Shown one piece after another: positions 2,563 through 43,058 of a stretch of DNA of 64,000 nt. Origin of the DNA: Candidatus Woesearchaeota archaeon (GTDB lineage: Archaea > Nanobdellota > Nanobdellia > Pacearchaeales > GW2011-AR1); assembly GCA_964527365.1 (NCBI GenBank), contig CAZGQV010000003.1, forward strand, positions 8,668-72,667, in the 5' to 3' direction. A model generated the notes under the pieces. The model made no database searches. It saw only the letters and a list, made by a program, of their open reading frames with translations, and was not told the DNA's origin. Position 1 is the stretch's first letter, and each line of letters opens with the position of its first letter. Position numbers and translations under genes: made by a program.

Positions 2563-3750
2563 ATGACAGATTTACCAGAATTAAATGTTGGCGTTGTAGG
2601 CCACATCGATCACGGAAAAACAACATTACTTTCAAGACTAACTGGGAAGTTTGCCGACACACATTCTGAAGAACTAAAACGGGGAATTACAATAAAACTT
2701 GGTTATGCTGAACTAATTATTTCTAAAGACAAAGGAGAATACACTCACGAAAAACGAGGAACTCCTGAACGATACATTTCATTTATTGATGCTCCAGGTC
2801 ATGAAATGCTAATGGCAACAATGCTTTCAGGTGCAGCAATTATTGATTCAGCAATTTTGGTTATTGCAGCAAACGAAGGAATTAAACCACAAACTAAAGA
2901 ACATTTTATGGCACTTCAAGCAAAAGGAATAAAAAATATAATAATTGTCCAAAACAAAATAGATCTTGTTTCAAAAGAAGAAGCTGCAAAAAATTATAAA
3001 ATAATAAAAGAATTTGTAAAAGGAACAATTGCCGAAAATGCCCCAATTATTCCAATTTCAGCCCAACAAAATATTAACATAGATAAATTACTTGAAGCAT
3101 TAATAAATTTCCCAGTTCCAAAAAGAAACACAAATGAAAAACCAATTTTTTTAATTGCAAGAAGTTTTGACATTAATAAACCAGGGACAGAAATAAAAAA
3201 TTTACATGGCGGGGTTTTGGGAGGAATATTAAAACAAGGAACATTAAAAGTGGGAGATGAAATTGAAATAAAACCTGGACTTTCAATAAAAAAAAATAAT
3301 CAATATTCCTATGAATCTTTGACAACAAAAATTTTATCTTTAAATAAAGGAACGAAACAAGTTAAAGAAATTTTGCCTGGAGCATCCATCTCCATTGAAA
3401 CTGAATTAGATCCATTTTTAACAAAAACAGATTCATTAACTGGTTCAGTTATTTCTCTAAAAGGTAATCTTCCGGAAATAACCCACAAAGTCAAAATAAA
3501 AACAAATTTATTTGAAGAAATATTGGGGGAAGTTGGTCACAAAAAAACTGAAGTTTTGAAAACAAAAGAAATGCTAATGCTTTCTGTAAATACAACAATC
3601 ACTGTTGGAACAGTTGAAAAGATTAGTGAAGATGATGTTGAAATGAGTTTGAATATTCCAATTGTTGCATTAAAAGGAGACAATGTTGGAATCGCAAGAA
3701 ACATTTCTGGCCACTGGAGATTAATTGGATTTGGCGAGATTCTTGATTAA
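2563..3750 (+). CDS. eif2g: translation initiation factor aIF2 gamma subunit
   Basis: G1 motif GHIDHGKTTL and G3 motif DAPGHE, an EF-Tu-like GTPase with domains II and III, 395 aa. This is the canonical aIF2-gamma architecture. Confidence 0.9.
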   Translation: MTDLPELNVGVVGHIDHGKTTLLSRLTGKFADTHSEELKRGITIKLGYAELIISKDKGEYTHEKRGTPERYISFIDAPGHEMLMATMLSGAAIIDSAILVIAANEGIKPQTKEHFMALQAKGIKNIIIVQNKIDLVSKEEAAKNYKIIKEFVKGTIAENAPIIPISAQQNINIDKLLEALINFPVPKRNTNEKPIFLIARSFDINKPGTEIKNLHGGVLGGILKQGTLKVGDEIEIKPGLSIKKNNQYSYESLTTKILSLNKGTKQVKEILPGASISIETELDPFLTKTDSLTGSVISLKGNLPEITHKVKIKTNLFEEILGEVGHKKTEVLKTKEMLMLSVNTTITVGTVEKISEDDVEMSLNIPIVALKGDNVGIARNISGHWRLIGFGEILD

Positions 3751-3767
3751 AGAGTACAATCTCCCCA

Positions 3768-3781
3768 ACAAACTTTATAAT
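3768..3781 (+). promoter_or_regulatory. TATA/BRE-like box (caaactttataatc) about 26 nt upstream of the ATG at 3806
   Basis: Recurring motif. Leaderless arrangement. Confidence 0.4.
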
Positions 3782-3805
3782 CTCCAAACATTTTTTACAT
3801 GAACA

Positions 3806-4711
3806 ATGGTAGTCTATTCACATTCCAGAATTTCCTCATATGAACAATGTAAATATCGATACAAATTAAGATATCTTGACAAAGTTAAATCTCCAATTGA
3901 AAAATCAATTGAATCCCACTTAGGGACATGTGTCCATGATACATTAGAATGGTTATACAAGGAAGTTTTAGAAAAAAGACTGCCAGAGATGGACGAAATT
4001 CTACAAAGATATGCTGCACAATGGAATCGTGACTACAAAGAAAATTTCATAATTGTAAAAAAACAATTTAATGCAGAAGACTACAAAAATAAGGGGGTAA
4101 AATTCTTAATAGATTATTATGTAAAACACACACCATTCAAAGATGGAACAATTTCCATGGAAGAAAAAGTTTGGGTTAATTTGGGAGATGATTTTCCCCA
4201 CAAAGTAATTGGATTCATTGATAGGCTAGTTTACAATAAAGAGAAAAACGAATATGAAATTCATGATTATAAAACAGCAAACTCTCTTCCAACACAGGCA
4301 AAGTTTGACAAAGACAGACAACTAGCATTATATGGGCTTGCAATAAGAGAAAAATATGGCCTAGACAAATCCATTCTTTTAACTTGGCATTACTTAAACC
4401 ACAATAAACAAATATTTTCAAAAAGAACCGACGAACAATTTGAACAATTAAAAGAAGAAATTAAAAATAAAATTTTAGAAATTGAAGCCAATCAAAATTT
4501 CCCTTGTACAAAAACAATTCTTTGTAATTGGTGTGAATATAAACTGTATTGTAAAGCACATGGAAATCAATTACCTGAACAATATAGGCAAAAACAAACT
4601 TCCTTAACAGAACATACTAAACCAAAAGAAATTCCCACAATTGAAATTCCAAAAGAAGAAATGGAAAAAATAAACAAAGAATTTCCAACTGTGAGTAAAT
4701 ATTTGAAATAA
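3806..4711 (+). CDS. PD-(D/E)XK nuclease of the Cas4/RecB-like (DUF83) type with a four-Cys cluster; standalone, with no CRISPR locus nearby
   Basis: An N-terminal Cys (YEQCKYRYKL) plus a C-terminal CxxxxxxCxxCxxxxxC, together with the IGFIDRL...EIHDYKT (D...ExK) motif, is a Cas4-like Fe-S nuclease architecture. Confidence 0.55.
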   Translation: MVVYSHSRISSYEQCKYRYKLRYLDKVKSPIEKSIESHLGTCVHDTLEWLYKEVLEKRLPEMDEILQRYAAQWNRDYKENFIIVKKQFNAEDYKNKGVKFLIDYYVKHTPFKDGTISMEEKVWVNLGDDFPHKVIGFIDRLVYNKEKNEYEIHDYKTANSLPTQAKFDKDRQLALYGLAIREKYGLDKSILLTWHYLNHNKQIFSKRTDEQFEQLKEEIKNKILEIEANQNFPCTKTILCNWCEYKLYCKAHGNQLPEQYRQKQTSLTEHTKPKEIPTIEIPKEEMEKINKEFPTVSKYLK

Positions 4712-35836: not shown

Positions 35837-36349
35837 TTATTCTGATTTTTCCTCTACTTTTTCTTCCTTAACTTCTTTGTCCTCAGCCCCACCATTTGAA
35901 GGTACATCTAAGCCCCCCTTTCCAGGAGTCATGCCCGTAGCATCAGGTGATGTCTCTTCCGTGGGTTTTTCAGTTTCTACTTTGGCAACAACTTTAGCTT
36001 CTTTTTCAGCTTTCTTGGCCTCTTCTTCAGCAGCCTTAGTTTCCTCTTCAGCTTTTTTCTTTTCTTCTAAAATATTTTTTTCAGCTTCAAGTTCTTGTTT
36101 AGTTTTTTTAACAATTCGATTAAATTCTTCAATTGAATCATAAATATCTACAGTAACAACAAAAACACTAACTCCAAATTTACCAATAATATCTCTAATT
36201 CTAATCAAACTTTCATCAACTTTAAACTTTTTAGCAATTATTTTTTTTGATTCTTCTTTACTAGGAGTAACTTCATTTTTGACTTCTATTTTTACTTCAT
36301 TTCTTGAAAACAAAGCATTCTTTTTTTCTTGTAATATTTTAATTTCCAT
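35837..36349 (-). CDS. rps24e: 30S ribosomal protein S24e with a long Lys/Glu/Ala-rich C-terminal extension
   Basis: An S24e core (LFSRNEVKIEV...KFKVDESLIRIRDI...) followed by a low-complexity extension of about 70 aa. Confidence 0.75.
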   Translation of the reverse strand: MEIKILQEKKNALFSRNEVKIEVKNEVTPSKEESKKIIAKKFKVDESLIRIRDIIGKFGVSVFVVTVDIYDSIEEFNRIVKKTKQELEAEKNILEEKKKAEEETKAAEEEAKKAEKEAKVVAKVETEKPTEETSPDATGMTPGKGGLDVPSNGGAEDKEVKEEKVEEKSE

Positions 36350-37253: not shown

Positions 37254-37625
37254 TTACTGTAACTCCAATTTTTTTTTGTTCCTTAAAACCATTTTCCTAT
37301 TTGATACACTTTTCTTAAGTTCCTTATCCATTGTAGCCAAAACATAAGTTGGATGTTCCTTCAAAAACGTCTTAATTCCAATGTCAACATACTTTCCTGG
37401 ACAACTAACTTCATCATAATCTTGCGCTTTAATTAGTTTTAAGGCCAACTCTGCTTCTTCTCTGAACTTCAGAGCTTTAGAACCATCTCTTAATCTTTTA
37501 ATCTCCTCAATTACTTCTTTAGGAATTGCAACCCGGTGGCCCTTCATCAAAAGTTCTTCATGAAAATCAACTTTATTTCCAATGCAATAAAGAATAAAAT
37601 TTGTATCCAATAAAACCCTTGCCAT
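37254..37625 (-). CDS. PIN-domain protein (VapC-like)
   Basis: MARVLLDTNFILY has an N-terminal Asp in a PIN context. The conserved acidic residues D..E..D follow, over 123 aa. Confidence 0.55.
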   Translation of the reverse strand: MARVLLDTNFILYCIGNKVDFHEELLMKGHRVAIPKEVIEEIKRLRDGSKALKFREEAELALKLIKAQDYDEVSCPGKYVDIGIKTFLKEHPTYVLATMDKELKKSVSNRKMVLRNKKKLELQ

Positions 37626-37655: not shown

Positions 37656-37985
37656 TTAATCTAAATCTTTCTCCGAACGAACATGTCTTTTATTTTGAAA
37701 AAAACTCGCCACAGCTTCCTGAATAAACCAAGGTTTTAAATGCCCTTCTTTTTCTTTTAATTTATCGACTAAATTACCTTCCTTGTGGTAACTATATAAC
37801 TCTTTAGCCTCACTAACTTGAAAATATGGAATTGGATGTACATTTTGAATATCAACAATCCAACTTTCAGGTTTATATTTTGCAACATAATTTTCCAAAT
37901 CAATTGCTAATAAATTATACCCTTTTGCTATTTCCACCATACAAAATATAAAATAAAACAATATATAAATCTTACTCTTTGTCAC
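37656..37985 (-). CDS. hypothetical protein
   Basis: 109-aa ORF. Confidence 0.25.
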   Translation of the reverse strand: MTKSKIYILFYFIFCMVEIAKGYNLLAIDLENYVAKYKPESWIVDIQNVHPIPYFQVSEAKELYSYHKEGNLVDKLKEKEGHLKPWFIQEAVASFFQNKRHVRSEKDLD

Positions 37986-38025: not shown

Positions 38026-38041
38026 AAAAAAATTTATAACC
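38026..38041 (+). promoter_or_regulatory. TATA/BRE-like box (aaaaatttataacc) about 24 nt upstream of the ATG at 38062
   Basis: Recurring motif heading the three-gene operon. Confidence 0.4.
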
Positions 38042-38061
38042 TGCATTCTCCTACCAATAAA

Positions 38062-38616
38062 ATGAAAGAGCGTGAAAACAGTTTACTTATTTTGAAAAAA
38101 ACTTTAAAAACAATTCAAAAAGATAATCCAACACCACTTAAAGAATTGAGTGATCAAACAATTCATTCTGCATCAAAAGGAGATATCGATAATTTAAACA
38201 TAGCAATAATTGTTTATTCTCTAGGAAAAATACTCTCAAGAGCAGATTACCGAACATTAAAGGGTTGGGATTCTTTTAGAAGAATAGCAATAACTGCTTT
38301 AAAATGTTCAATAAATGATTTAGAAAATAACAATGAAAAAAAATTTAGAAAAGATTTTAATTTAATAAGAAAAGCCATCAATAAAATTTCTGGAAAATTA
38401 AAAATATATATTGAAGAAGTATTCAAAAAAGCTGAAATAGCAAAAGCTTCAAGAATTCATGAACATGGAATTTCAGCAGAAAAAACAGCAAAAATGCTTG
38501 GAATATCAATGTTTGATTTACAAAATTATACGGGGCAAACAAGAATTTCTGAAGTTCCCTTAAACCAAACAATAAATGTAAAAACAAGAATCAAAATGTT
38601 AGAGGAATTATTTTAA
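38062..38616 (+). CDS. hypothetical protein with a C-terminal HTH-like segment; first gene of a coupled three-gene operon
   Basis: 184 aa. ISAEKTAKMLGISMFDLQNYTG resembles an HTH. The stop lies 2 nt before the next start. Confidence 0.3.
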   Translation: MKERENSLLILKKTLKTIQKDNPTPLKELSDQTIHSASKGDIDNLNIAIIVYSLGKILSRADYRTLKGWDSFRRIAITALKCSINDLENNNEKKFRKDFNLIRKAINKISGKLKIYIEEVFKKAEIAKASRIHEHGISAEKTAKMLGISMFDLQNYTGQTRISEVPLNQTINVKTRIKMLEELF

Positions 38617-38617
38617 A

Positions 38618-39127
38618 ATGAATGGACAAACATTAGAATTTGCAACAAAAAAACATGAAGGCCAAGTAAGAAAATTTAAAGAGGAAGCTTACATAAAACA
38701 CCCAAAAAATGTTGCAAAAATAATAAAAGAAAATAAAAAGAGTCACAAGATTAATGAATTACTTGCAGCAGCATTGCTCCATGACACATTAGAAGACACA
38801 AATACAACAGAACAAGAACTCAAAAAAAATTTTGGAAAATTGATAACTTCAATTGTAAAAGAATTGACAACTGACGAAAATGAAAAAGAAAAAATTGGGA
38901 AAAAAGAATATCTTGCAAATAAAATGTCTAACAGGAGTAGTTGGGCTTTGGTGATAAAATTAGCAGATAGATTGGACAATGTTTCTGATATAAAAAATAG
39001 CCCACAAGAATTTAAAAAAAAATATATTGAAGAAACTAATTTTATTTTAAAAAAAATAGAAAACAATAGGGAACTATCTAAAACACATAAAAAAATAATT
39101 AAAAAAATAAAGGAAAAATTAAAATGA
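38618..39127 (+). CDS. RelA/SpoT-type HD-domain hydrolase (small alarmone hydrolase, Mesh1/SpoT-like)
   Basis: ATKKHEGQVRKFKEEAYIKHPKNVAKII...LLAAALLHDTLEDTNTTEQELKKNFG..ITSIVKELT...ALVIKLADRLDN aligns motif by motif with the (p)ppGpp-hydrolase HD domain consensus (KxHxGQxRKxGEPYIxHP...AALLHDxxEDT...FG...VxxLT...LIKLADRLHN). Confidence 0.7.
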   Translation: MNGQTLEFATKKHEGQVRKFKEEAYIKHPKNVAKIIKENKKSHKINELLAAALLHDTLEDTNTTEQELKKNFGKLITSIVKELTTDENEKEKIGKKEYLANKMSNRSSWALVIKLADRLDNVSDIKNSPQEFKKKYIEETNFILKKIENNRELSKTHKKIIKKIKEKLK

Positions 39128-39810
39128 ATGAAAATGTATTAATTTTTGATGCAAGTTCATTAATCAGTTTAGCTATGAATGGTCTGCTTCCAGAATTAAG
39201 AGAATTAAAAAAAATATTTCCAGGAAAATTTATTATTCCTGCAGAAGTTAAATGGGAAATAGTTGGAAGACCGATAAACATTAAAAGATTTGAACTTGAA
39301 GCATTAAAATTAAATGAGCTCATAGAAAATAAAATATTAGAATCCCCTGATTCAGTTGGAATAAATGATAAAAAAATATCTGAAGAAACAACAAAATTAC
39401 TTAACATAGCAAACAATACTTTTTTTGATAGGGGACAAAAAGAAATTCATTTGATTGATTTGGGAGAAACTGCCTGTCTTGCATTATCAAAAATGTTGAA
39501 TGATAAAGGAATAAAAAACGTTTTATTAATTGATGAGAGAACAACAAGGATGCTTTGTGAAAAACCTGAAAATTTAAAAAAATTATTGCAAAAAAAATTG
39601 CACACGAGAATAGATGTAAAAAAAGAAAATTTAAAATATTTTAAAGGAATGAAGATAGCAAGATCAACTGAATTAATTTATATTGCATACAAAAAAGGAG
39701 TTGTAAGAATAAAAAATAATAAAATTTTAGATGCCTTGCTTTATGCTTTAAAATTCAAAGGTTGTGCAATTTCCACTGAAGAAATTAAAAAAATAAAAAA
39801 ATTGGGTTAA
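39124..39810 (+). CDS. hypothetical protein, possibly PIN-like; third gene of the operon
   Basis: 228 aa. The N-terminus VLIFDASSLISLA has an Asp in a PIN-like beta-strand context, with later acidic residues (IDERT). The start overlaps the upstream stop by 4 nt. Confidence 0.3.
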   Translation: MNENVLIFDASSLISLAMNGLLPELRELKKIFPGKFIIPAEVKWEIVGRPINIKRFELEALKLNELIENKILESPDSVGINDKKISEETTKLLNIANNTFFDRGQKEIHLIDLGETACLALSKMLNDKGIKNVLLIDERTTRMLCEKPENLKKLLQKKLHTRIDVKKENLKYFKGMKIARSTELIYIAYKKGVVRIKNNKILDALLYALKFKGCAISTEEIKKIKKLG

Positions 39811-42800
39811 TCAAAAATCTTTTGTATATCTGTCAAATTCATACCTCGAACTCCACCATCTTCTTCAACAATAATATCTTTCACTAATTTCTTTTTACTT
39901 TCTTGAAGCTTCAAAATCTTTTCTTCAATGGTATCTTCAGCAATCATCTTATAAACAAATACCTTATTCTTTTGACCAATTCTATGTGCCCGGTCCATTG
40001 CTTGCATTTCAACTGCTGGATTCCACCAAGGATCTATAATAAATACATAATCTGCACCAGTTAAATTGAGTCCAAGTCCTCCAGCTTTAATGCTAATTAA
40101 AAAAGCTTCAGCATCCTTCGAATCTTGAAATCCATTGACAACTTTCTCTCTATTTATTGTTTTTCCATCTAAATAAGAATATTTTAATTTCTTTTTCTCC
40201 ATTTCTTGTCTAACTAGTGTTAACATTTTTACAAAAGAAGAAAACACTAAAACCTTATGTCCTTCAGTCATAACCTTCTCAATTTCCGTAATCAAAAGAT
40301 CAAACTTCACACTTCCTCCTTCATAACTAGAATCAATCATTTTTGGATGCAAACAAATTTGACGAAGTTTTGTCAAGCCTTCCAAAATTTTCATTCTAGA
40401 TTTATTTAAACCATTTTCCTTAATGGAAGTATTAATTTCATGTCGATAATATTCTTTCCAACTTTCATAAACTTCCTTTTCAGATTCATTAAATTTACTA
40501 CGTAAAATAACTTCTGTTTTTTCCGGAAGTTCATTAGAAATAACTGATTTAGTACGACGAAGTAAAAAAGGTGATACCATTTTTTTCAAAGATTCAGAAA
40601 CTTCTTTGTCATGATTTCTTTCGATTGGCAAAACAAAATCCTCTTTAAAAAAATCATATCCTCCCAAGTAACCAGGATTCAAAAAATTAAACAAACTCCA
40701 TAATTCCATTAAATTATTTTGTATTGGTGTTCCAGAAAGAACTAATTTATTTTTACCTTGAAGAGAATACACACTTTTTGCACTAAGACTAAAAGGATTT
40801 TTAATAACATGTGCTTCATCAAGAACAACATATTCAAAAATCTTATCAGAAAATAATTCTAAATCATTTCTTAAAACGCCATAAGTTGTAATAATAACAT
40901 CATTTTTATCCATAATTTCTTTAAATTTATTATTAGAATTTTTTGTTTTTGAAGAACTCCGATTTAAACCATGATGAATATATGTTTTCAAATTTGGTGT
41001 AAATTTTTCAATTTCCCTCTTCCAATTAAATACAAGAGACGTTGGAACAATAACCAAAGAAGGAATCTTTACTTTTTCATCTTTTATTTTCTGAAGAACG
41101 CAAAGTGTTTGAACTGTTTTTCCAAGTCCCATATCATCAGCAAGAATTCCATTAAAATTAAAATCTCTCAAAAAATTAATCCAATCATATCCTTCTTTTT
41201 GGTACTTTCTCAATTTAGCATTAACTCCTTTAGAAATTTTTGTTTCTCTAATTTTTTTAAAATCCTTGAATTCTTTTATCATTTTTTTTATTTTTGGCGC
41301 TAAAGAAGCATTACGGTCAAGTTCAATAATTGAATTAAGAATAGTAATATGATTTTTAGATAATTTTAAATTATTTTTTTCTAAATTTATAAATCCTGAA
41401 AAAGCTCTCAAATTATGAATCCAGTTTTTAGGAATAACACCTTTCTTTCCTTCACCTAAATCAACAAACCTTTTATTTTTAAAAATTGAATTTAAAACTT
41501 CATCAATGGTCACTTCATCCGATCCAAATTTAACCGAACCCTTAATATTAAACCAATCATTTGACTCAGTAACATTCATTTTCATAATTGGTTTATTCTT
41601 TATAACACGAAAATTAAATATCTTTTCTTCACCTAAAACCTTTATTCCTTCAACAGAAATCAAAGGAACAGTCTTTGTTACAAAGTCAATTAAATCTCCT
41701 TCTAAAACAAATTCATCAAGCTCTTCATGTGTAACAACCGAGTAAGAATTCAAAATCTCAACCACCCTATCTTCAAATTCTAAATCTCTTTCAACATCAT
41801 ACAAAGAATTTTTCTCAATTATAATAATTTCTTTATTTTTAGAAAAATAATTTATCTCACGACCAGCATAATTAAATCTTAATTTAATTCTTATACTTGC
41901 ACCAGATTTTTCCAAATATAATTTGGCAATAGGAGACACAACTTTATTTTCCCGTTTTAAATCATCTGAAACCTTAAATTGAAACCCATCTAAAATTTTT
42001 TGATAATATTTTGAGAAAAATTTCTTTAATTCATTCTCACTAAATTCTAATTTTTTAGGGAATCTAATAATGCTTCTCACAACTTGTAAATTATCACTTT
42101 CTTGATGTCCATAAAAACACCTATTTTCAATATCAAAAACCCATAAACTTGTACTACCAATCTCCAAAAGTTTCATACGAAGTAAACTAGATTTTTTATT
42201 ACCACAAATAAAAAAAGGTTCAAGAGCATATTTCTCATTTTTTTTCTTTTTTATTTCCCAAGAAATTTTGAAATCCTCTTTATTAAAAACAGCCCCTAAA
42301 ATAATTTCTTGTTCCTCAAAATATAAATCTCTTAAAACCGGCATCATTAAATCAGTATTAACATCATAAAAACTACTTTTACTAAATCCAGCAGAAGAAT
42401 AACCCATTCCAAAATTATCTCCTTCATGCATATATGTTAATACTCGCCTAACATTAGAACTAATATTCCATTTTAAAAAATTAAAATCCCTTCCAAAAAA
42501 CTTTATTGGTGCACTATAACTCCCATTTTTTTTTATTATTCCTTTTTGAACTTTCAATAACTGCTCTCCCAAACCAAAATCTTCAAAATTAAAATAAACC
42601 ATGTTCTTTCTTTCTTCTAAATTTTTTTCTGGAAATAATTTTCTTAAATAAGCAAGTCCATTTTTTGATTTTTCAATCTCATTTTCTTTTTTTTCTTCAT
42701 CCAATTCTAAATTTTTAAAATCATTATCTTCTTTTTTTAATAATTTATAAATTAAAGTTGATCCAGCATGACTACATCCCTTACCTTTTTCACGATAAGC

Positions 42801-43058
42801 ACAATTACAAAAAGCTTCTATTTTACCGTCTACAATTTCCAAATCAACTTCATAACTTTTCTTTCCCACTTTCAATAATAAATAAACCTCATTCTTAGAA
42901 TCAAAACTATTACGAATAATTTCTAAATTATCATATTCATCAATCGCTTGTTTCCAAAATTTCTCATGAACGAACCCCAAAAAAATTTCAATCTGTTTTT
43001 TTGAAAGTCCAAGTTTAGATAATCTTCCTTCAATATCCGTATTCTTCAATTTTGCCAT
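39807..43058 (-). CDS. SNF2-family helicase/ATPase with an N-terminal SWIM zinc finger
   Basis: 1083 aa. SWIM CNCAYREKGKGCSH at the N-terminus. Helicase motif I LADDMGLGKT, motif II DEAH, and C-terminal helicase motifs through QAMDRAHRIGQ. Confidence 0.85.
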   Translation of the reverse strand: MAKLKNTDIEGRLSKLGLSKKQIEIFLGFVHEKFWKQAIDEYDNLEIIRNSFDSKNEVYLLLKVGKKSYEVDLEIVDGKIEAFCNCAYREKGKGCSHAGSTLIYKLLKKEDNDFKNLELDEEKKENEIEKSKNGLAYLRKLFPEKNLEERKNMVYFNFEDFGLGEQLLKVQKGIIKKNGSYSAPIKFFGRDFNFLKWNISSNVRRVLTYMHEGDNFGMGYSSAGFSKSSFYDVNTDLMMPVLRDLYFEEQEIILGAVFNKEDFKISWEIKKKKNEKYALEPFFICGNKKSSLLRMKLLEIGSTSLWVFDIENRCFYGHQESDNLQVVRSIIRFPKKLEFSENELKKFFSKYYQKILDGFQFKVSDDLKRENKVVSPIAKLYLEKSGASIRIKLRFNYAGREINYFSKNKEIIIIEKNSLYDVERDLEFEDRVVEILNSYSVVTHEELDEFVLEGDLIDFVTKTVPLISVEGIKVLGEEKIFNFRVIKNKPIMKMNVTESNDWFNIKGSVKFGSDEVTIDEVLNSIFKNKRFVDLGEGKKGVIPKNWIHNLRAFSGFINLEKNNLKLSKNHITILNSIIELDRNASLAPKIKKMIKEFKDFKKIRETKISKGVNAKLRKYQKEGYDWINFLRDFNFNGILADDMGLGKTVQTLCVLQKIKDEKVKIPSLVIVPTSLVFNWKREIEKFTPNLKTYIHHGLNRSSSKTKNSNNKFKEIMDKNDVIITTYGVLRNDLELFSDKIFEYVVLDEAHVIKNPFSLSAKSVYSLQGKNKLVLSGTPIQNNLMELWSLFNFLNPGYLGGYDFFKEDFVLPIERNHDKEVSESLKKMVSPFLLRRTKSVISNELPEKTEVILRSKFNESEKEVYESWKEYYRHEINTSIKENGLNKSRMKILEGLTKLRQICLHPKMIDSSYEGGSVKFDLLITEIEKVMTEGHKVLVFSSFVKMLTLVRQEMEKKKLKYSYLDGKTINREKVVNGFQDSKDAEAFLISIKAGGLGLNLTGADYVFIIDPWWNPAVEMQAMDRAHRIGQKNKVFVYKMIAEDTIEEKILKLQESKKKLVKDIIVEEDGGVRGMNLTDIQKIFD

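Follow-up and report, generated by a model that had tools for sequence, protein, structure and literature searches.

Is a stand-alone alarmone hydrolase that sits, tightly packed, between a putative regulator and a putative nuclease part of a dedicated module, or has it been inserted between two genes that belong together without it? The question is raised by three consecutive genes, here called g1, g2 and g3, in a 64,000-nucleotide stretch of a Candidatus Woesearchaeota archaeon (contig CAZGQV010000003.1, positions 8,668 to 72,667; hereafter the window), which has a G+C content of about 28% and whose homologues carry the names of Woesearchaeota, Pacearchaeota or Nanoarchaeota metagenome-assembled genomes. 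A sequence-only reading had described g1 as helix-turn-helix (HTH)-like, g2 as a RelA/SpoT-type HD hydrolase and g3 as PIN-like, and had proposed that g2, as a small alarmone hydrolase (SAH), is the core of a toxin-antitoxin (TA) or nucleotide-signal-dependent defence module. Our comparative analysis upholds the domain assignments and the tight packing, but not the SAH-centred module. It points instead to a conserved two-gene operon, g1-g3, into which a third gene is facultatively inserted. We regard this architecture as probable and hold the functional part of the reading with less confidence. The elements of the locus are the following:

38026-38039, + strand: putative archaeal transcription factor B recognition element (BRE) and TATA element (AAAAAAA-TTTATAA), read from the sequence, with a presumed promoter function
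38062-38616, + strand: g1, 184 aa, helical-bundle N-terminal domain and UPF0175-like HTH, the conserved partner of g3
38618-39127, + strand: g2, 169 aa, stand-alone RelA/SpoT-type HD hydrolase, Mesh1-like, a lineage-specific passenger in the slot between g1 and g3
39124-39810, + strand: g3, 228 aa, VapC-type PIN-like protein with extra helical elements

The three genes are indeed tightly packed on one strand. The stop codon of g1 (TAA, 38614-38616) is followed by the ATG of g2 after a gap of 1 nt, not the 2 nt given earlier, and the stop of g2 and the start of g3 share the letters ATGA, a 4-nt overlap.

g1 and g3 form a conserved pair at a fixed locus

Relatives of g3 were found in 246 genomes when one genome per species was scanned, and the loci compared below (L001-L080) are the best 80 of these 246 genome matches, each from a different assembly. 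In 74 out of the 80 loci g1 lies on the same strand upstream of g3, and the remaining six are contig ends; the HD gene lies between them in only five. Genes 1 and 3 thus keep their arrangement in relatives that do not have the HD gene. The surroundings of the pair are conserved as well. A divergently oriented gene for a PIN_9 protein is found upstream of g1 in 66 out of the 74 loci, of which 60 also have RpoE', and the spacer between PIN_9 and g1 measures 51-144 nt in 41 loci. The genes flanking the locus (rpoE', spt4, S24e, S27ae, ScpA, diphthamide synthase, gyrA/B and Kae1) are housekeeping genes.

The pair also evolves in much the same manner as these neighbours. Mean identity to the window over 57 loci is 50% for g1, 61% for g3, 70% for RpoE' and 45% for PIN_9, and divergence is correlated both between g3 and RpoE' (Spearman coefficient 0.56) and between g1 and g3 (0.67); g1-g3 divergence is about as slow as that of the neighbouring core genes. 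No second copy of g1 or g3 was found among the examined loci or within the window. Type II TA loci are typically mobile and patchy and often multi-copy; here each of the 80 assemblies has a single copy, whose position by PIN_9-rpoE' is fixed. The pair behaves as a single-copy, core-like unit of Woese-/Pacearchaeota-type DPANN archaea and not as a mobile module.

A further line of evidence comes from gene fusion. A profile search with g3 in 1.84 billion representative sequences recovered 596 clusters at 50% identity (E<=1e-3), and 11 of the top 150 clusters are proteins of 356-431 aa in which the g3 part occupies the C-terminal half and the N-terminal half is g1. At least nine of the 50%-identity clusters (P0370, P0381, P0384, P0415, P0429, P0432, P0444, P0462 and P0490; loci L171 5001-6221, L172 5001-6212 and L173 1195-2406) represent single proteins of 403-431 aa that combine g1 and g3. 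Profile-profile alignment by hhalign of g1 with the N terminus of P0415 gave a probability of 99.8% (E 5e-28). Two of the fusions, P0370 and P0415, were looked at more closely: both are called genes, on metagenome contigs that are independent of each other, and the fusion in L171 still adjoins a PIN_9 gene. Fusions in several lineages argue strongly for a joint action of g1 and g3.

The slot between g1 and g3 holds exchangeable genes

What lies between the two genes varies greatly. Among the 74 loci with both, g1 and g3 abut in 36, the HD gene is present in five (L004, L006, L009, L010 and L015), other same-strand genes are present in 31, and a short gap (61-250 nt) is left in two; the HD gene is also in the slot in L081/L082. 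The 31 loci filled with other genes represent at least 12 unrelated kinds, all on the same strand and with junctions of 1-4 nt (examples are L012 7732-7998, L029 7570-7998, L080 595-1149, L030 7219-8004 and L024 5871-7847). They encode His_Phos_1 proteins (11 loci), GNAT proteins (seven), an 88-aa membrane protein (five), S-adenosylmethionine (SAM) methyltransferases (two), and further LMW-PTP, Ser_hydrolase, a polysaccharide deacetylase, DUF5680, a glycosyltransferase-like protein, a 658-aa secreted protein and several unknowns. About 20 out of the roughly 39 cargo-bearing loci have a phosphohydrolase (His_Phos_1, HD or LMW-PTP). Because L035 and L044 hold His_Phos_1 and GNAT genes together, the present state may go back to an older operon of four genes and its differential loss. 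The slot is able to hold two cargo genes, as in L081/L082, where g1 and the HD gene are separated by an extra gene (3657-4004) for a 115-aa protein without a Pfam match.

The closest relative is particularly informative. In L001, whose g3, g1 and SNF2 proteins are 87%, 83% and 87% identical to those of the window, the HD gene is absent and the g1 stop overlaps the g3 ATG (ATGA). In a neighbour-joining (NJ) tree of g3, every HD-bearing locus falls into one subclade, in which eight of the 12 members have the HD gene; L001, L002, L003 and L005 do not, and they show a clean ATGA junction. The history of the HD gene in this subclade would be explained most simply by one gain followed by repeated clean losses.

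g2 is a predicted alarmone hydrolase of a mobile family

That g2 is a stand-alone RelA/SpoT-type HD hydrolase was confirmed by its match to Pfam PF13328 HD_4 (61.1 bits against a cut-off of 27.2, E 1.3e-16). Against TIGR00691 (spoT_relA) it covers the hydrolase part only, positions 2-144 of 687, and as a single-domain protein it has HD_4/HD matches without a synthetase, TGS or ACT domain. Its best matches in the Protein Data Bank (PDB) are human MESH1/HDDC3 (3nr1, E 8.6e-19) and Drosophila Mesh1, with bacterial SAHs and Rel N-terminal domains ranking below them; this proximity to the human and fly proteins is one of PDB matches, and the subgroup may be Mesh1, Mesh1-L or another. In an alignment of 25 homologues H13, R18, H28, H55, D56, E59, D117 and N121 are invariant, and D60 is D in 21 and N in four, being D in the g2 of the window. 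These active-site positions align with the MESH1 motifs and correspond to the residues that bind the metal and form the catalytic pair in Mesh1 and in Rel hydrolases. The catalytic residues being intact, g2 is a credible stand-alone SAH and is probably active, with a predicted chemistry that would comprise Mn2+-dependent removal of the 3'-pyrophosphate of (p)ppGpp or (p)ppApp, or of the 2'-phosphate of NADPH.

Compared with Mesh1/HDDC3 and Mesh1-like SAHs (PMC3153485), g2 likewise has a single HD_4 domain of about 170-180 aa and no synthetase domain, and it shares the H...HD...D metal ligands, the ED pair, the Arg and the Asn. Like orphan SAHs (PMC9765508), it has no toxic synthetase beside its gene. 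It differs from the Mesh1-like proteins in being archaeal (DPANN) and in lying within an unrelated HTH-PIN operon. The earlier remark that no RelA/SpoT synthetase is evident in the window agrees with a coarse regular-expression scan of its six-frame translation, in which none of the synthetase motifs EIQIRT, DxxGxR, YxSxH and RxKxxxSxxxK was found.

Relatives of g2 also occur without g1 and g3, in archaea and in large phages:

L083 4001-5294: HD gene without g1/g3
L084/L085 4001-5803: HD gene without g1/g3
L086: HD gene without g1/g3
L087, L088, L092, L096, L099 and L101: metagenome relatives, 50-59% identity, on marine phage-like contigs
Records H1-H15: phage relatives, e.g. Vibrio phage phiKT1024, OM249648.1 125036-125473

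In L083-L086 an HD protein 61% identical to g2 is encoded divergently beside PIN_9-rpoE'-spt4-S24e, with KsgA (RrnaAD) downstream or a SpoU methylase flanking it, and no g1 or g3 was found within 4 kb of the HD gene. This lineage, with a G+C content of about 37-38%, shares the ScpA...GyrA macro-synteny with the window, and its sequences nest inside the slot HD clade in the HD tree. Other HD relatives of 50-59% identity lie in unrelated archaeal contexts or on phage-like contigs with terminase, portal and clamp-loader genes, and profile hidden Markov models detected no g1 or g3 relatives near other HD genes. In addition, 220 GenBank phage records, many of them for genomes of about 190-640 kb, encode g2 relatives of up to 47% identity, annotated as metal-dependent phosphohydrolase or guanosine pyrophosphohydrolase. 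The g2 family is evidently mobile between viruses, bacteria and archaea. The claim of novelty for archaea that accompanied the first description of the locus was too strong, as archaeal SAHs were already catalogued in 2011 (Atkinson et al., PMC3153485) and RelA/SpoT homologues of putative bacterial origin have been reported from Woesearchaeota (41.7% of the genomes) and Pacearchaeota (21.3%) (PMC8407392).

g1 and g3 resemble a VapBC-like pair

The description of g1 as HTH-like holds; the protein has two parts, an N-terminal helical bundle (about residues 1-134) and a C-terminal UPF0175-like HTH (about 125-160) with the motif YEHGIS..KTAK.LG. UPF0175 (PF03683) matches were obtained in 16 out of 30 g1 homologues, the best at E 5.2e-4 and all under the gathering score; the g1 of the window itself has only an HTH_7 match at E 0.044 and none at the Pfam threshold. 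Comparison of g1 with the PDB by sequence and profile was uninformative, returning only a designed 'CAP repeat' HTH and helical-repeat proteins.

As for g3, the description as PIN-like proved sound: its fold is that of VapC-type PIN proteins, an acidic quartet is conserved, and the conserved acidic residues are D9, E45, E115, D137 and E138. Sequence and profile searches of the PDB gave no meaningful match. In a local Pfam scan DUF3368 (PF11848) matched one out of 30 g3 homologues, at E 0.26 and below threshold, and none of ten fusion proteins; precomputed PF11848.14 matches are 'faint' for the g3 of the window and 'weak' for the fusions. Membership of COG2405 was considered and rejected, the COG2405 structure 2mdt ranking 11 and not being preferentially similar. 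With the VapBC systems that combine UPF0175 (COG2886) and a COG2405/DUF3368 PIN protein (PMC2701414; PMC5499597), g1-g3 share the order HTH then PIN, the overlapping stop and start, a putatively UPF0175-like C terminus in the first protein, and a PIN fold of the VapC group with conserved acidic residues in the second. g3 is not by sequence a member of the Fcf1/Utp24-like PIN_9 proteins, the true PIN_9 being encoded by the neighbouring gene, and unlike Nob1 it has no zinc ribbon and has an obligatory HTH partner.

Upstream element and neighbouring genes

The heptamer TTTATAA at 38033-38039, together with an A-rich tract, lies outside the coding region, 29 nt before the g1 ATG. TTTAWA begins at -29/-30 from the g1 start codon in 23 out of 72 related loci, and aacaTTTATTAA variants occupy the equivalent position in other related loci. 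The element looks like an archaeal BRE/TATA that would drive a leaderless or near-leaderless operon mRNA. Bacterial models are uninformative for an archaeon: a sigma-70 promoter scan returned 17 sites against 13.5 expected, and a scan for intrinsic terminators, a bacterial-type signal, found none. The genes on the g1 side are:

37254-37625, - strand: PIN_9 (Fcf1-like) gene (PIN_9 E 6.3e-8), divergent from g1, first gene of the rpoE'-spt4-S24e-S27ae cluster
37656-37985, - strand: orphan open reading frame (ORF) of 109 aa between PIN_9 and g1, no Pfam match

The orphan ORF is kept only among the nearest relatives (67% identity in L001, 59% in L081/L082), and it enlarges the divergent promoter region, otherwise 51-144 nt. 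Farther along the same cluster, the S24e ORF (35837-36349, - strand) encodes 170 aa and ends in a long tail rich in Glu, Lys and Ala; in L083 and L084 S24e is shorter (106-118 aa).

On the other side, a gene for a 1083-aa SNF2 helicase (39807-43058, - strand; SNF2_assoc, SNF2-rel_dom and Helicase_C) converges on g3 with a 4-nt overlap. A CxC...CxH motif near its N terminus is possibly a SWIM-type zinc finger. The helicase adjoins g3 only in L001 (87% identity) and is found at a distance in L070. It matches DpdE and ZorD of PADLOC with E values down to 5.6e-152. A Dpd or Zorya defence context was rejected, as this looks like generic SNF2-domain similarity, and the genes scanned with Pfam yielded no further component of either system. 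Nor do the genes of interest point to a defence system: the PADLOC-DB protein models gave no match for g1 or g2, and the flanks are of the housekeeping kind rather than a defence island.

A probable two-gene operon with a facultative passenger

We suggest that g1 and g3 act as one unit, in which g3 would be a Mg2+-dependent PIN ribonuclease and g1 a partner that binds nucleic acid and/or restrains the nuclease. The unit probably descends from a VapBC-like (UPF0175-PIN) TA ancestor and is now probably kept for housekeeping RNA processing or turnover, a possible role in view of its fixed place beside genes of transcription, translation and ribosome biogenesis. The g2 gene would have been picked up in one subclade and lost again in close relatives, and would be expressed via read-through and coupling from the g1 promoter. 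It appears dispensable, because it is lost in near relatives, and its product would work independently of g1 and g3 on its own substrate, which may be (p)ppGpp, (p)ppApp, NADPH or a related 3'/2'-phosphorylated nucleotide.

Several points weigh against this proposal. The notion of a housekeeping RNase is drawn from conservation, synteny and fold, and a chromosomally fixed, still functional TA pair would look similar. Co-transcription of the three genes is deduced from the junctions of 1 nt and 4 nt and the conserved upstream TATA. In L083-L086 the pair is missing from the locus, so that it may be dispensable, and the fact that roughly every second cargo-bearing locus has a phosphohydrolase of some kind may be a sign of a common functional theme instead of neutral passengers. 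Finally, sampling was limited to the best 80 of 246 genome matches, and the trees are simple NJ trees.

It would be tempting to see in the three genes one dedicated TA or defence module, in which the SAH neutralises the toxin, or controls an alarmone needed to license the PIN nuclease, and g1 is the regulator. The tight junctions invite this view; SAHs are described as antitoxins of bacterial toxSAS modules (PMC7229694), three-component systems with PIN and HTH proteins have been proposed earlier (PMC5499597), and g3 shows a weak N-terminal match of 44 residues to the PADLOC candidate PDC-S70 (E 1.1e-4). However, the HD gene fills only five out of 74 slots and is absent from the nearest relative, 36 loci have nothing in the slot and 31 have unrelated genes there, the HD gene is found without g1 and g3, the window yielded no synthetase motifs and PADLOC no match for g1 or g2, and g1-g3, a syntenic single-copy pair, is inherited vertically amid core housekeeping genes. 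The toxSAS-SAH modules (Jimmy et al. 2020, PMC7229694) likewise have a tight operon and a stand-alone hydrolase of the SAH type. The likeness ends at the partners, which here are HTH and PIN proteins in a facultative association, with no small alarmone synthetase adjacent or detectable in the window. The three-component module is largely refuted by synteny, and we consider it very improbable.

If the slot gene is set aside, g1-g3 could still be a working, chromosomally fixed type II TA system of the UPF0175(COG2886)-PIN(COG2405) kind, in which g1 would be a labile antitoxin and autorepressor, g3 a growth-arresting RNase and g2 an unrelated passenger. An antitoxin-like HTH gene comes first and a PIN gene second, with an ATGA overlap where cargo is absent, and the acidic residues of the VapC-type fold are intact. 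UPF0175, seen in about half of the g1 homologues, has been reported exclusively beside COG2405 PIN proteins (PMC5499597), and faint to weak precomputed DUF3368 matches fall in with this, although both DUF3368 and UPF0175 stay under the Pfam thresholds in scans. TA pairs are typically mobile, multi-copy and patchy, whereas g1-g3 occurs once, at one conserved core locus, in each of at least 80 assemblies, and its conservation equals that of core genes of information processing. In addition, a stable one-polypeptide fusion in several lineages is a poor fit with a labile antitoxin, both proteins (184 and 228 aa) are far larger than the classic partners, and cargo of up to 2 kb between the genes would upset the antitoxin:toxin stoichiometry. 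On balance a fixed TA system seems unlikely to us.

Alternatively, the middle gene might be a functional client of the pair, the slot accepting interchangeable small enzymes (phosphohydrolases such as His_Phos_1, SAH and LMW-PTP, GNAT acetyltransferases and methyltransferases) that modulate the PIN nuclease or share a substrate with it. The slot is filled in about half of the loci, always on the same strand and with tight junctions, and about half of the cargo-bearing ones have a phosphohydrolase. His_Phos_1 and GNAT recur in several g3 clades and stand together in two loci, and extended systems of the PIN+GNAT and PIN+HTH+X kinds have been discussed (PMC5499597). Against this, membrane proteins, a glycosyltransferase-like protein, a polysaccharide deacetylase and a 658-aa secreted protein have no common chemistry, 36 loci do without cargo, and the HD protein works in other contexts, phages included; moreover, compact DPANN genomes would have few intergenic landing sites, and insertion within an operon may be neutral. 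We find the client model improbable. Much the same doubt applies to a variant in which g1-g3 is a TA-derived, two-part PIN ribonuclease that has become a core component of these DPANN archaea, and the slot gene (SAH, histidine phosphatase, LMW-PTP, GNAT, methyltransferase and others) an accessory that modifies the substrate of the nuclease or tunes its activity. Were this variant true, the SAH would act on a PIN-linked RNA 3'-end or nucleotide ligand and not on the classical alarmone pool.

Significance

An archaeal TA or defence module built on an alarmone hydrolase would be notable, but the comparative data give no support for one, and the SAH encoded by g2 adds to an enzyme family that is known, horizontally mobile and described before from DPANN genomes. 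The locus also holds a caution, namely that a functional module should not be read from the tight packing of genes in DPANN genomes, and its slot is a well-documented operon-internal site at which streamlined genomes exchange small genes. More notable than the SAH is the conserved, sometimes fused HTH-PIN pair with its variable slot, a variation on the VapBC-like theme. This uncharacterised family comprises 596 clusters at 50% identity, is present in at least 246 species, is core-like by rpoE'/spt4 and is fused in some lineages; it is a candidate for a lineage-specific RNA-processing factor, or else for a clear case of TA domestication.

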